From NCBI GenBank assembly GCA_963739205.1, contig CAVTZJ010000002.1, positions 576,192 through 640,191 on the forward strand: a DNA stretch of 64,000 nt. The letters run 5' to 3'. This document shows positions 23,937-45,440 of this stretch, in pieces. Both the position numbers and the translations under genes were made by a program. Below the pieces are notes generated by a model. It saw only the letters and a program-made list of their open reading frames with translations, was not told the DNA's origin and searched no databases. Position 1 is the stretch's first letter, and each line of letters opens with the position of its first letter. This DNA comes from an uncultured Pseudomonadota bacterium. GTDB taxonomy: Bacteria; Pseudomonadota; Gammaproteobacteria; Burkholderiales; SG8-39.

Positions 23937-24764
23937 TCACCTGCGCTTCTTCGTTTTCGATCTTCGCGGCAAGGGCGCCGGGTTCGGTATCTCCTCCGCG
24001 ACGACGAAGGCGCCGCCCTGGTACAGCTCCGCGGTCGGATCGCCCGGCTTCTCGCGCGCGAGCACTTCCTTGGCGAAAGCTTCCGAGTCGTCGCGCGGCT
24101 CGTAGCCGAGCCGGAAGGCGTTCGAGTTGTCGTACCAGCCGCGCGTGTTGTTCGACACGCCGTACACGATCTCGAAGCGGATGTCGGGATGCTCGATGCC
24201 GATCGTCACGAGCTGCGCGAGGTCGCGCGGCGAGAGCCAGATCGACAGGCGCCGCCTGTCGATCGGCGCCGGATTGACGTTGCCGATGCGGATGCACAGC
24301 ACCTGCATGTCGTACTTGTCCGCGTACAGGCTCGCGAGCGCCTCGCCGAACACCTTCGACACGCCGTAGCGGCTGTCGGGCTTCGGATAGACGCGGTGGT
24401 CGATCAGGTGCTCGCGGCGGTAGAAGCCGGCCGCGTGGTTGGACGAAGGAAACACGATGCGCTTGACGCCATTCCTGCGCGCCGCTTCGAACACGTTGTA
24501 GCAGCCGACGATGTTCGCCGACAGGATCTCCGGCCACGGACCCTCGACCGAGTAGCCGCCGAGGTGCACCACGGCGTCGACGCCCTTCGTGATGCGCAGC
24601 GCGTCGGCGAGCTTCGAGACGTCGGCGCGCACGAAGCGCTCCGCCTTGTCGAATTTCTTCAGCGGACGGAGGTCGGACACCCTGAGCGCGTACCGCCCGG
24701 CGAGCTCGCGCCGAAGATGGGTGCCGACGTCTCCCGCGGCACCGGTGATGAGCACGGTCTTCAT
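23937..24764 (-). CDS. NAD-dependent epimerase/dehydratase (uronate dehydrogenase-like SDR)
   Basis: ITGAAGDVGTHL Rossmann motif, SSNHAAGFY, YGVSK catalytic pair. Confidence 0.85.
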   Translation of the reverse strand: MKTVLITGAAGDVGTHLRRELAGRYALRVSDLRPLKKFDKAERFVRADVSKLADALRITKGVDAVVHLGGYSVEGPWPEILSANIVGCYNVFEAARRNGVKRIVFPSSNHAAGFYRREHLIDHRVYPKPDSRYGVSKVFGEALASLYADKYDMQVLCIRIGNVNPAPIDRRRLSIWLSPRDLAQLVTIGIEHPDIRFEIVYGVSNNTRGWYDNSNAFRLGYEPRDDSEAFAKEVLAREKPGDPTAELYQGGAFVVAEEIPNPAPLPRRSKTKKRR

Positions 24765-25075
24765 GCGCCGACGGACTGCACGACTTCGACGAAGTCGCGG
24801 CTGCGCTTCACCCTGTCGCCCCAGGCCTGGTCGAATTCCCCCACGAGGCGTTTCAGCGCCTCCGATCCCTGGATCGCGCGCGCACGTCCGATGTCGTCGA
24901 ACTCGTAGAAGGCGTAGTGCACGCCCTCGTCAGCGTCGCTCCAGCCGCGCCACGCGCGGCGCGCGCCGAACGCCTTGAGCGCGTCGGGCAGGTGCTCCTC
25001 CTGGTACCAGCGGTCGAAGGCGTCCTCGATGCTGGCGTCGACGACCTGGGCGCGCACGATGAAACAGGCAGTCAT
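24761..25075 (-). CDS. Small dimeric alpha/beta-barrel protein (EthD/DUF4286-like)
   Basis: 104 aa. Its stop overlaps the downstream ATG (ATGA). Family assignment is from general resemblance only. Confidence 0.5.
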   Translation of the reverse strand: MTACFIVRAQVVDASIEDAFDRWYQEEHLPDALKAFGARRAWRGWSDADEGVHYAFYEFDDIGRARAIQGSEALKRLVGEFDQAWGDRVKRSRDFVEVVQSVGA

Positions 25076-25172
25076 GTCGGCCTCCTCCCCGGATGTCCCT
25101 GCAACGGCGTGCGCTAGCCTACACCCTGAGCGAACCCGCTAGTCGATCGCCCAGAATGATCCTGCTGTTCGA

Positions 25173-25919
25173 TCAGGTCGATAGCAGACGCGGCACCCGG
25201 CTGCGCAGGCCTGCGTACTGTTTTTTGATGTAGCGATAGCACTCGCAGGCCTTTCGCTCGAGCCGTCGCTCGTCGAGAACGGCGACGCGCCCGCGCCGAT
25301 AGCGGATCAACCCGGCGTTTCGCAGGCCCGCGGCGGCGTTCGAGACACCGGAGCGCCGCGCTCCCAGCATCGCGGCGATGGACGCGTGCGACATCACGCA
25401 ATCGTCCGGATAGGCGTAGTCGTGCATCGTCAAGATCCAGCGCGCGACGCGCTGCTCCACGCTATGGTGCTGGCTGCAGGCGACCAGTTGGCTGATCACG
25501 GCCAGGAGCACCTGCGTGTAGTGGATCAGCACCCGCTGCAGCGGGCTGCCGAACTGAAGCTCCGCTTTCAGGTCCCTGGATCTCATTCGCAGCGCGCGGC
25601 CGGCAAGCTGCACGATCGCCTTGTCGGGCGTGCTGAGGCCGCCCAGGAAGATGTTGATGCCCGTCATTCCTTCGCTGCCGATGACGCCGACCTCGACCGT
25701 GCGGTCGTCCTTCGTGGTGTCCACCATGGCGACCACGGCGTCCTCCGGGAAATACACGTACTCGATGTCCTGCCCGGCTCGATACAGGACCGTGCCGTGC
25801 GCCAGCTCGACGTGTTCCATCTTGGCGACCAGACGCCGGTATTCCGTACGCAGGAGCGCGCTGAGGATGCCGTTGCTTACGGCTACTGCCCTGCCGGACG
25901 ACCGGCTGTTGCGTGTCAT
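25173..25919 (-). CDS. Crp/Fnr family transcriptional regulator
   Basis: cNMP-binding-like N-terminus (VYFPEDAVVAMV...VEVGVIGSEGMTG). C-terminal HTH SHASIAAMLGARRSGVSNAAAGLRNAGLI. Paralog of 26583-27335. Confidence 0.85.
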   Translation of the reverse strand: MTRNSRSSGRAVAVSNGILSALLRTEYRRLVAKMEHVELAHGTVLYRAGQDIEYVYFPEDAVVAMVDTTKDDRTVEVGVIGSEGMTGINIFLGGLSTPDKAIVQLAGRALRMRSRDLKAELQFGSPLQRVLIHYTQVLLAVISQLVACSQHHSVEQRVARWILTMHDYAYPDDCVMSHASIAAMLGARRSGVSNAAAGLRNAGLIRYRRGRVAVLDERRLERKACECYRYIKKQYAGLRSRVPRLLST

Positions 25920-26365
25920 ATCGCGCGCCGGGGCGCCACGTATTCTATTCCGGAGCGCTCGATGGCTATGAGCGCGGGAAGCACGTCGCCGCGAACGATG
26001 GCGAGCGGCGCGACGATCGCGCCATCGGCGCATTGGACGTTGGTCGCTCCCCCGCAAAATCTCTGCTTCGCCAGGTCGATCGACACGGAAATCTGCTCGC
26101 CCCGCCTATTCGTCGTGAAGATCGGGATGAGGCAAGCGAGCGCAGCCGCCGCGATGTCCAGCGCGCAAGCATATTCGTGCGGGGACAGCAGTTCTTCGCA
26201 GGTGCGGCGCGTCTGGTGGAACGTAAAAGCTGCCGCCACGGAAAGCGGCACCAGGGACTCCTGGCTGCCGCTCCATATCTGCGCGACCTGCGCGCAGTCT
26301 TTGCGCAGGTCTACCACGGCCAGAAAAAAGACCCCGCCTGGGAAGGCGGGGTCGGATTCCCACAT
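25916..26365 (-). CDS. Hypothetical protein, translationally coupled to the downstream Crp/Fnr gene; true start uncertain
   Basis: High GC3 and protein-like composition from about 26300 downward. Stop overlaps the Crp ATG (ATGA). ATG 26365 has no SD, and codons 5-15 form a terminator-like hairpin. Confidence 0.45.
   Translation of the reverse strand: MWESDPAFPGGVFFLAVVDLRKDCAQVAQIWSGSQESLVPLSVAAAFTFHQTRRTCEELLSPHEYACALDIAAAALACLIPIFTTNRRGEQISVSIDLAKQRFCGGATNVQCADGAIVAPLAIVRGDVLPALIAIERSGIEYVAPRRAI
26324..26353 (-). terminator. Rho-independent terminator-like hairpin + U6
   Basis: On the minus strand: GACCCCGCC-TTCCCA-GGCGGGGTC followed by TTTTTT. Confidence 0.5.
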
Positions 26366-26455
26366 ACGCTATAAAGGGAGGGAGGAGGCACGTATGTAAG
26401 GGACAAACAGACAAAAAGCAGTGCGCGTTGATCCATCCAGAGCCTGTTTGCCGCA
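26324..26455 (-). ncRNA. Candidate small RNA or 5' leader (C/U-rich anti-SD-like tract + intrinsic terminator)
   Basis: Lower-GC intergenic stretch. CCUCCUCCCUCCCUUU (26373-26388) lies upstream of the terminator and downstream of the Crp-type palindrome. The 5' end is not defined. Confidence 0.3.
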
Positions 26456-26485
26456 TTAAGTTTCGCTCTTTCGCCTTCGCAGCTC

Positions 26486-26501
26486 TGTGCGCTAGCGCAC
26501 A
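26486..26501. promoter_or_regulatory. Crp/Fnr-type operator candidate
   Basis: Perfect 16-bp palindrome TGTGCGCTAGCGCACA (TGTG-N8-CACA) between the divergent Crp/Fnr paralogs. Confidence 0.5.
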
Positions 26502-26582
26502 CAATGAATATACTTTTCGCACCGTAAACCTGGTCATCCGGAACTCTGGAACGGTTCCGCGCCAGGGAATTCGAGGAGACCC

Positions 26583-27335
26583 ATGCCCGCGACCCCCGCC
26601 GCGACGCCGCCGCATCCTCCCGCCGGAAATCTTCTGCTCGCGGCGTTGCCCCCTCCGGACTATGAGCGCCTGCTGCCGCACCTGGAGCCCGTCGCGCTGC
26701 CGCTGGGATGGGCCCTCTACGAATCCAGCATCCGCATGGCGCACGTGTATTTCCCGACCGAGGGCATCGTTTCCCTGCTTTACGTGATGGAAAACGGCGC
26801 CTCCGCGGAGATCGCGGTGACCGGCAACGAGGGCGCGGTCGGAATTTCCCTGTTCATGGGAGGGGGAAGCACGCCGAGCCGCGCGGTCGTGCAGAGCGCC
26901 GGTCATGCCTACCGCCTCGGTGCGGAGATCCTGCGTCGGGAATTCGAACGCGGCGGGGATCTGCAGCACCTGCTGCTGCGCTACACCCAGGCGCTGATCA
27001 CGCAGATGGCGCAGACCGCGGTGTGCAATCGCCACCATACGGTGGAGCAGCAGCTGTGCCGCTGGCTCCTGCTGAGCCTTGACCGTCTGCCTGCCAACAA
27101 GATCCGCATGACCCAGGAGCTCATCGCGAACATGCTGGGCGTGCGGCGCGAGGGCGTCACCGAGGCGGCGGGACGCCTGCAGGACGCGGGACTGATTCAC
27201 TACCAGCGCGGCGAGATCACGGTGCTGGACCGGCCGAAACTGGAACGGCGGGTGTGCGAGTGCTACGCCGTCGTCAAACGCGAATCCGACCGTCTGCTCA
27301 CCTACGCGAACGGCCCGGGGAAGACACCGCCCTAA
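26583..27335 (+). CDS. Crp/Fnr family transcriptional regulator
   Basis: SD GAGGAG. VYFPTEGIVSLLY...AVTGNEGAVG. HTH TQELIANMLGVRREGVTEAAGRLQDAGLI. Confidence 0.85.
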   Translation: MPATPAATPPHPPAGNLLLAALPPPDYERLLPHLEPVALPLGWALYESSIRMAHVYFPTEGIVSLLYVMENGASAEIAVTGNEGAVGISLFMGGGSTPSRAVVQSAGHAYRLGAEILRREFERGGDLQHLLLRYTQALITQMAQTAVCNRHHTVEQQLCRWLLLSLDRLPANKIRMTQELIANMLGVRREGVTEAAGRLQDAGLIHYQRGEITVLDRPKLERRVCECYAVVKRESDRLLTYANGPGKTPP

Positions 27336-45028: not shown

Positions 45029-45440
45029 GCGCAGCGGCGGTCAACCCGGGGCGCGCGGTCGGCGTTGTGTCGTCAGGAATGGGGACGAAAAGGACAATCG
45101 GACAAGCAATCGAGCCGCGCATCCTGATGCTGCGCGGCCAGCGGGTCATGCTGGATTCCGATCTCGCCAGGCTCTACGAAGTCGAGGTGAAGGCGCTGAA
45201 CCAGGCGGTAAGGCGCAACCCGGCACGCTTCCCTGCCGACTTCATGTTCCGGCTGACCAGGGAGGAGGCCGAACGTTCAAGGTCACAAACTGTGACCTTG
45301 AAAGGCGCGGGCGGGAGGGGACGCAACATCAAGTACCTGCCCTACGCGTTTACCGAGCAGGGTGTCGCGATGCTCTCCTCGGTGCTGAAAAGCGAACGGG
45401 CGGTCCAGGTGAACGCGGAGATCATGCGCGCCTTCGTGCG
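45029..45440 (+). repeat. Copy A of a 412-bp direct repeat (ORF6N gene plus leader)
   Basis: Colinear with 53645-54056. Shared leader GCGCAGCGGCGGTCAACCC...CGGCGTTGTGTC and a colinear 121-codon reading frame. Confidence 0.7.

Follow-up and report, generated by a model that had tools for sequence, protein, structure and literature searches.

A conserved anti-Shine-Dalgarno RNA, probably a Crp-controlled small RNA and operon leader, in an uncultured Burkholderiales bacterium

Introduction

A number of terminator-ended small RNAs (sRNAs), namely FnrS of Escherichia coli, AniS of Neisseria, and CyaR, are transcribed from promoters dependent on the Crp/Fnr family and pair with ribosome-binding site (RBS) regions. 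In Sinorhizobium rnTrpL and Listeria SreA/SreB, one promoter gives rise to a short terminated RNA with possible activity in trans as well as to a read-through mRNA. E. coli reportedly also makes a CRP-activated RNA that diverges from the crp promoter and is coupled to crp autorepression. Among RNAs of family RF02278 (Betaproteobacteria toxic small RNA), ncS03, ncS05, ncS27, and ncS62 of B. cenocepacia target RBSs through CU-rich unpaired regions, and ncS27 slows growth when overexpressed and shuts down metabolism on nutrient deprivation (PMC5688073, PMC10987360); its longer primary form is processed to a short double-hairpin core (PMC5688073). Cuckoo RNAs consist of two to four adjacent hairpins, each carrying CCUCCUCCC in its loop (PMC4615179). 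Here we describe an RNA element on the minus strand of a 64-kb stretch of DNA (hereafter, the window; contig CAVTZJ010000002.1) from an uncultured Burkholderiales bacterium, situated between a divergent Crp/Fnr-family gene, crpB, and the open reading frame (ORF) that we term ORF133.

On comparative evidence, positions 26417-26323 of the minus strand are a conserved, covarying structured RNA with an anti-Shine-Dalgarno (anti-SD) loop. We consider it probable, though well short of certain, that this strand from about 26452 to 26323 is a transcription unit for a Crp-controlled anti-SD sRNA that is also the leader of an operon. An earlier note on this DNA, written from its letters and ORFs, had offered an sRNA and a leader as alternatives; our analysis supports the view that both would hold at once.

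A conserved two-hairpin RNA with an anti-Shine-Dalgarno loop

Coordinates are positions in the window throughout, and loci labelled L001 and so on are homologous loci from our scans. R1 denotes our covariance model of the RNA, whose features are as follows.

26417-26323, minus strand: conserved RNA core, consisting of U-rich 5' motif, hairpin 1, linker, terminator hairpin, and U-run (R1, 104 bits).
26400-26417, minus strand: U-rich 5' motif TTTTTGTCTGTTTGTCCC, consensus YTTTTTGTCCC (alignments A3 and A4).
26358-26403, minus strand: hairpin 1, a 12-pair stem with a 2-nt bulge and a 20-nt loop at 26389-26370 (folds and covariation).
26324-26353, minus strand: intrinsic terminator GACCCCGCC-TTCCCA-GGCGGGGTC-TTTTTT, with a conserved UCCC in the loop (scan, fold, and compensatory changes).

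The earlier note had picked out a palindrome, a pyrimidine tract, and a terminator in a gap of lower GC content, and all of these were found where it had placed them. The GC content is 0.51-0.53 over 26325-26549, compared with 0.63-0.72 in the flanks. A perfect 16-nt palindrome, TGTGCGCTAGCGCACA (TGTGCG-CTAG-CGCACA), occupies 26486-26501, and the pyrimidine tract CCTCCTCCCTCCCTTT lies on the minus strand at 26388-26373. A terminator scan independently selected the hairpin at 26353-26324 (10 pairs, 8 of them G-C, a 4-nt loop, and T6; folding energy -21.4 kcal/mol), which has the GC-rich stem-loop and directly following U-run of an intrinsic terminator and is oriented for the minus strand only. 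Taken alone within the window, the short motifs are weakly significant, as TGTG-N8-CACA occurs once against 0.31 expected and CCTCCTCCC three times against 0.68 expected. Since the palindrome, the hairpin with the tract in its loop, and the terminator recur together in 30 of 32 homologous loci, however, we regard them as functional rather than as chance occurrences.

The minimum free energy (MFE) fold of the minus strand here consists of two hairpins joined by the linker GGGAAUCC. The 20-nt loop of hairpin 1 holds the whole CU tract, including the anti-SD sequence CCUCCUCCCUCCC, which resembles that of 16S rRNA, and UCCC lies in the terminator loop. When 21 non-redundant sequences (the window and its homologues) were each folded alone, the same two hairpins were obtained, with the CU tract in a loop of 15-21 nt.

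Homologous loci were collected by an ORF-alignment scan of metagenomes, which gave 32 loci encoding ORF133, and by a genome scan with crpB, which gave 80 loci of 69-92% identity from many Beta- and Gammaproteobacteria. Most of the ORF133 loci show the same architecture by eye. Among the crpB loci only L001, which comes from a Burkholderiales metagenome-assembled genome (MAG) and is the closest of the 80, carries the RNA; compared with the window, L001 is almost unchanged over 26412-26324 but scrambled over 26470-26415. R1 matched 30 of the 32 ORF133 loci at 67-104 bits, seven of these outside its seed (on the seven non-seed loci, six scores were 70-88 bits and that of a truncated copy in L106 was 33 bits), and none of the 79 loci with crpB only. 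Its one match in the window is the core itself.

The pairing is also supported by covariation. RNAalifold, run on a plain MAFFT alignment, found compensatory changes in 8 of 17 pairs. In alignment A4, which was fitted to R1, 88.7% of cells are paired (27-57% in slid controls) and two-sided changes are seen in 10 of 20 pairs; the observed pairing values were reached by 0-1 of 500 shuffles. Changes on both sides occur in 7 of the 11 stem pairs of hairpin 1, and the terminator helix likewise shows compensatory changes, with a U-run of 6-9 U across homologues.

These same changes bear on a plus-strand reading that the earlier note had raised as an alternative, in which the purine tract is a strong SD for an ATG-TAA mini-ORF (26393-26398) or serves another product. 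The arrangement AGGAGG-N5-ATG-TAA is indeed present in the window, but its ATG falls in the covarying 5' strand of hairpin 1, most homologues have other sequences there (e.g., GCGTACGC or GCATGCGC), the ATG-stop pair is not conserved, and the terminator faces the minus strand only. We therefore give this reading virtually no credence.

Two ORF133 loci depart from the pattern. L092 lacks the RNA wholly, and L101 (about 2440-2503) has kept the 5' strand of hairpin 1 and lost everything from the loop through the terminator. Hence ORF133 can do without the RNA, although the RNA is ancestral to the group; these two natural deletion variants would be useful natural controls. The U-rich 5' motif is a candidate Hfq site or RNase E processing site. 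In L111 (about 2470-2510) this motif occurs as a tandem duplicate (GATCTTTTTGTCCCG...GATCTTCTTGTCCCG), which hints that it is a discrete functional unit.

At gathering thresholds, Rfam gave no match anywhere in the window. A permissive local scan of 26200-26650 (451 nt, E <= 10) listed 16 families, of which RF02278 was the best match, over its full model length (35.5 bits, E = 1.5e-5). RF02278 scored 38.1, 35.2, and 34.2 bits in L081, L084, and L083, respectively. The weaker matches anti-hemB, ar14 (21.9 bits against a threshold of 58.8), and CcsR1 (13.5 against 65.3) are likewise all CU-rich anti-SD sRNAs. FnrS (RF01796) was not among the 16 families. The C-rich anti-SD sRNA suggested by the earlier note is thus borne out, as far as sequence can tell, by a covarying double hairpin with the tract in its loop and by its best Rfam similarities. 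A blastn search of the RNA against 72,556 plasmid records returned terminator-like fragments only. The betaproteobacterial anti-SD sRNAs thereby gain a well-supported family that had gone unannotated, now described by a covariance model and some 28 distinct sequences.

ORF133 begins directly behind the terminator

The RNA stands at the head of a conserved gene order: divergent crpB, operator, RNA, ORF133, DUF4286, and NAD-dependent epimerase. The genes concerned, with the RBS discussed below, are as follows.

25916-26317, minus strand: ORF133, true coding sequence, GTG start, no SD (homologue alignment).
25173-25919, minus strand: crpA, a Crp/Fnr-family paralogue (Pfam HTH_Crp_2 and cNMP_binding).
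25081-25090, minus strand: extended SD GGGGAGGAGG of the DUF4286 gene (24761-25075), top predicted duplex partner.
26583-27335, plus strand: crpB, divergent Crp/Fnr-family regulator (Pfam).

The first gene had been called as a 149-aa ORF; our search gave 75 homologous proteins, none of them named, whose sources are metagenomes and Burkholderiales MAGs. In their alignment, conservation begins at [M/V]VDLR, i.e., codon 17, which puts the true start at the GTG of 26317-26315 and gives a protein of 133 aa. This agrees with the earlier note, which had suspected a start downstream of the annotated ATG. In the window and 10 other loci, 3-5 nt separate the U-run from the start codon, and in 10 loci a conserved ATG stands 3 nt behind the U-run. 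ORF133 is genuinely coding, since mismatches by codon position number 394/246/754 and AlphaFold (AF2) gives a confident model of the 133-aa form, with a predicted local distance difference test score (pLDDT) of 92.7 and a predicted template modeling score (pTM) of 0.87. No Pfam or NCBIfam family and no fold match in the PDB (best Foldseek E = 0.69) were found for it.

A rival explanation of the terminator would be that the hairpin and T-run encode the N-terminus of a 149-aa protein, MWESDPAFPGGVFF..., with the pyrimidine tract incidental. From the ATG at 26365 onward no stop interrupts the frame, a 30-nt insertion in L001 keeps it open, and versions of 149-160 aa are annotated in close relatives. 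The in-frame upstream ATG, however, is found in 7 of 25 loci only, and stops close the upstream frame in L083, L086, L088, and L102. Moreover, the substitutions in this region are compensatory at the level of RNA, and the conservation from codon 17, the ATG behind the U-run in 10 loci, and the confident model of the 133-aa form all speak for the shorter protein. We consider an N-terminal extension highly improbable and reject the one hinted at by the L001 insertion, as neither frame nor ATG is conserved; the putative N-terminus MWESDPAFPGGVFF is then simply translated hairpin DNA. Gene callers over-extend the ORF133 N-terminus through the RNA gene, and the new start corrects an error in this clade by which a hairpin is translated as 16-27 extra residues.

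Since ORF133 starts just past the U-run, its transcription requires read-through of the terminator, and the RNA is an obligatory operon leader. ORF133, crpA, DUF4286, and the epimerase gene leave no room for a promoter of their own beside the RNA. The crpA gene, inserted between ORF133 and DUF4286 in the subclade of the window only (window, L001, and L081-L084), has an ATG that overlaps the stop codon of ORF133 (ATGA), so that the two may be translationally coupled. Its product and that of crpB are 41% identical to each other, and crpB adjoins in most ORF133 loci.

The operator and two predicted promoters

The palindrome lies between two putative promoters, with the following features.

26486-26501, no strand: operator, a perfect palindrome with CRP-type TGTG-N8-CACA spacing, common to two back-to-back promoters (sequence and conservation).
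26464-26459, minus strand: GAAACT, predicted -10-like hexamer for transcription of the RNA and operon (spacing constant in 27 loci).
26509-26514, plus strand: TATACT, predicted -10 box for divergent transcription of crpB (fixed spacing, TATAAT consensus).

We searched for TGTGCG-N4-CGCACA-like sites with up to 2 mismatches within 350 nt upstream of crpB homologues and found one in 44 of the 80 loci, the background rate being 0.10 per 380 nt. We therefore take TGTGCG-N4-CGCACA to be the probable operator of this Crp subfamily, whether or not the RNA is present. In L002-L080 the site takes the form TGT[G/A]CG-N4-CG[C/T/A]ACA at about -40 to -350 from the crp homologue. Its place upstream of the subfamily's own crp gene makes it probable that the site is autoregulatory, and the regulon might be predicted from it; the presumed binder of the palindrome is most likely the crpB product. 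A probable operator is thereby defined for an uncharacterized but widespread Crp subfamily.

When 27 ORF133 loci were aligned on the palindrome, which has a fixed position in them, a hexamer GAnAGT was found on the RNA strand at exactly +22 to +27 after it (G24, A24, A25, G20, and T24 of 27, the third position being n). The window version is the GAAACT listed above; the -10 box that the earlier note had proposed, CTTAAT at 26460-26455, is 4 nt off this conserved hexamer. Invariance is mainly at A2, A4, and T6, in part the pattern of a -10 box. A conserved GGGACAGT box was also considered as one strand of an RNA helix with the UUGUCCC motif, and this was rejected for want of compensation: the window, L087, and L099 have GCGAAA yet keep GUCCC. 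The palindrome is confirmed as a two-fold symmetric site. If GAnAGT is the -10 box, and only then, the transcription start site (TSS) would fall near 26452 and the operator center at -41.5, a position of class II activation.

On the other strand, in loci where crpB adjoins, a TATAAT consensus starts 8 nt from the palindrome, across a constant gap of 7 nt. A minus-strand TATATT box that the earlier note had placed at 26507-26512 is in fact this plus-strand element, TATACT, of crpB. We infer a crpB TSS near 26521, which would put the operator center at -27.5, a repressing position; 69 bp would separate this start site from the one predicted for the RNA.

L092 is informative here. Although it lacks the RNA, it retains the operator and the -10-like box (940-1020), and its ORF begins with an ATG 4 nt after the TSS predicted from that box. 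This geometry supports the promoter assignment and suggests that ORF133 may tolerate a near-leaderless mRNA.

Alternatively, the palindrome could be an autoregulatory operator of crpB only, with the RNA transcribed from an unrelated promoter nearer to the core, e.g., from an A/T-rich box upstream of YTTTTTGTCCC. This would account for the site upstream of crpB homologues in 44 of 80 loci, where only L001 carries the RNA, for the lack of conservation of 26452-26418, and for an operator-to-core distance that varies from 56 to 85 nt among loci. Against it, the spacing of GAnAGT is exact in 27 loci, including L085, L088, L092, L103, and L110, in which crpB is not adjacent, and in L092 only the GAnAGT box stands between operator and ORF. 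We judge this alternative improbable and prefer an operator common to both promoters. The earlier suggestion of an FnrS-like RNA accordingly survives in part: a Crp-type operator at class II spacing to a -10-like box is predicted, while homology to FnrS is not found.

A candidate target in the same operon

All 30-nt segments of both strands of the window (31,986 segments; mean -10.9 kcal/mol, standard deviation 4.1) were scanned for duplexes with the loop. Excluding the RNA's own antisense, the best duplex was with the DUF4286 RBS at 25079-25108 (-32.3 kcal/mol). Comparison of DUF4286 genes linked and unlinked to the RNA showed the following.

DUF4286 linked to the RNA, 6 of 6 loci: SD GGGGAGGAGG (25090-25081 in the window), invariant; duplex -23.7 to -25.5 kcal/mol.
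DUF4286 unlinked, 4 of 4 independent contexts: SDs GGGAGAG, GAGGGGA, GAGGGAGA, and GAAGGAG; duplex -11.0 to -14.9 kcal/mol.

The unlinked loci thus carry ordinary SDs, whereas the linked SD is unusually long. These results are suggestive of the DUF4286 RBS GGGGAGGAGG as the best candidate target of the loop and provide a concrete, testable sRNA-target pair.

A motif, GGGTGTAGGCTAG (25114-25126, minus strand), lies about 35 nt upstream of this SD; it is present in 6 of 6 RNA-linked loci and absent from the four unlinked DUF4286 loci. Its possible roles are those of an internal promoter (-10 TAGGCT) or half an operator. The overlapping 25108-25123 was considered as a second operator, since it matches the palindrome at 13 of 16 positions, and was set aside because only its left half, GGGTGTAGGCTAG, is conserved elsewhere.

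A best pairing site within the same operon would also be expected if the RNA were purely a cis-acting leader, one that sets or tunes read-through into ORF133-crpA-DUF4286-epimerase and/or masks an SD in the same molecule, with no function in trans. In keeping with this, the ORF start 3-5 nt past the U-run makes the operon dependent on read-through, the RNA is strictly linked to ORF133 (30 of 32 ORF133 loci and 0 of 79 crpB-only loci) and occurs once in the window, and the loop could mask a GGAGG that precedes the ORF in L095 and L111. However, no conserved antiterminator pairing was found in single-sequence or consensus folds, the MFE structure of every homologue being the two-hairpin terminator form. 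The terminator is strong (-21.4 kcal/mol, 6-9 U), so that terminated RNA should be the main product, ORF133 of the window has no SD to sequester, and the design matches that of the trans-acting RF02278 RNAs (PMC5688073). Nor did we detect a leader peptide or a ligand-binding aptamer: the reading frame across the element is not conserved, and no Rfam riboswitch was matched. A purely cis-acting leader is therefore possible but rather unlikely. Of the leader attenuator envisaged in the earlier note, the leader stands, given the start right after the U-run, and the classical attenuator is not supported.

Proposed mechanism

In the reading that we prefer, an sRNA that is also a leader, a Crp-family dimer, most likely CrpB, would bind the palindrome at 26486-26501, activating the RNA promoter from -41.5 and repressing crpB's own promoter from -27.5. 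Most transcripts would end at the terminator, giving a small RNA of ~95-130 nt, whose 5' end may be processed at the U-rich motif in the manner of ncS27 (PMC5688073), while the fraction that reads through would form the mRNA for ORF133, crpA, DUF4286, and the epimerase. The anti-SD loop would pair with RBSs in the cell and block the initiation of translation. Its foremost target would be the DUF4286 RBS of the same operon, reached in trans or within the read-through transcript, and such pairing would create an incoherent feed-forward loop.

Several points weigh against this reading. RF02278 scores fall below its gathering score of 50 in the window and in every orthologue tested, the alignment behind the pair counts is not independent of R1, and all of the related loci come from uncultured organisms. 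The predicted -10 box GAAACT is weak, and a generic sigma-70 scan found no promoter. Conservation is lacking across the 35 nt that separate the predicted TSS from the core, so that the true 5' end could lie closer to the core, and the operator may serve crpB autoregulation only. The next-best duplex, at -30.1 kcal/mol, is separated from the best by a small margin, and target specificity is uncertain because anti-SD loops pair with any strong SD; furthermore, the six RNA-linked DUF4286 loci are orthologous and thus not independent.

We also advance, as speculation that we think doubtful in its entirety, a three-in-one device that combines the two-way operator, a released anti-SD sRNA, an essentially leaderless ORF133 mRNA, and gating of distal cistrons by GGGGAGGAGG as a 'super-SD'. 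The first ~95 nt would be released by termination or by cleavage at the U-run, the remaining mRNA would begin 3-5 nt later and support SD-independent translation of ORF133, and the released RNA would gate DUF4286 and the epimerase through a co-evolved 'super-SD'. If true, an incoherent feed-forward loop within one operon would uncouple the expression of its proximal and distal genes.

Additional observations

A perfect 12-bp inverted repeat, TTCAAGGTCACA-GTT-TGTGACCTTGAA, lies at 45276-45302 between minus-strand ORFs, 8 nt from another CCTCCTCCC (45268-45260, minus strand); the repeat could be an operator or a terminator. This copy of CCTCCTCCC was considered as part of a second, similar RNA and rejected, as R1 finds one copy only in the window. 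In L085 (762-935, minus strand) two tRNA genes directly follow the ORF133 homologue, and in L099 (4614-4992, plus strand) there is a sub-threshold match to the cspA thermoregulator (43 bits against 78).

Comparison with known systems

No principle is overturned by these results, as sRNAs with CU-rich loops and sRNAs driven by Crp/Fnr-family regulators are both well known. What is distinctive is the wiring: an anti-SD RNA stands behind a Crp-type operator that is shared with the regulator's promoter (class II being predicted) and fronts an operon whose SD-less first gene begins immediately behind the terminator.

The element probably descends from the same stock as the RF02278 RNAs and would work like them. 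Both have two hairpins, the second of which is a Rho-independent terminator, both have CU-rich, unpaired sequence complementary to RBSs, both occur in the order Burkholderiales, and the linker, GGGAAUCC here, is GGAUUC in the family. They differ in that the CU tract lies here in the loop of a longer, covarying stem, compared with the 5' end or a stem in the family, and in that the present element fronts an operon, with an ORF right after its U-run, and has a predicted Crp-type class II promoter. Burkholderia genomes have 3-5 copies of the family; as far as the loci show, copy number is lower here, with a single copy in the 64-kb window and in each locus. RF02278 RNAs are independent short transcripts of 57-92 nt, and their overexpression inhibits growth, with toxicity in E. 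coli.

With the alphaproteobacterial Cuckoo family (ar14, CcsR1-4, and RSs0680) the element shares the exact CCUCCUCCC loop motif, compensatory variation in the stem, and a small co-transcribed partner gene whose function is unknown (PMC4615179, PMC8034643). It nevertheless falls outside the two-to-four-hairpin definition, since it has a single CCUCCUCCC loop and a terminator loop with only UCCC, and no second motif-bearing hairpin is present near hairpin 1 in the window. It also belongs to another host group, and it lies upstream of its partner gene while Cuckoo RNAs lie downstream.

The likeness to FnrS, AniS, and CyaR is one of logic only, i.e., a class II Crp/Fnr-family site driving an sRNA, and the geometry here is predicted. 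The site is of CRP type, TGTG-N8-CACA, and not of the FNR type TTGAT-N4-ATCAA, there is no homology to FnrS in sequence or structure, and the RNA doubles as an operon leader. As with rnTrpL and SreA/SreB, two products would arise from one promoter, but here with no detectable attenuator switch. Finally, as at E. coli crp, a Crp-type site lies between a crp gene and a divergent non-coding transcript; in the present case, however, that transcript is structured and conserved, carries an anti-SD loop, and would continue into an operon.

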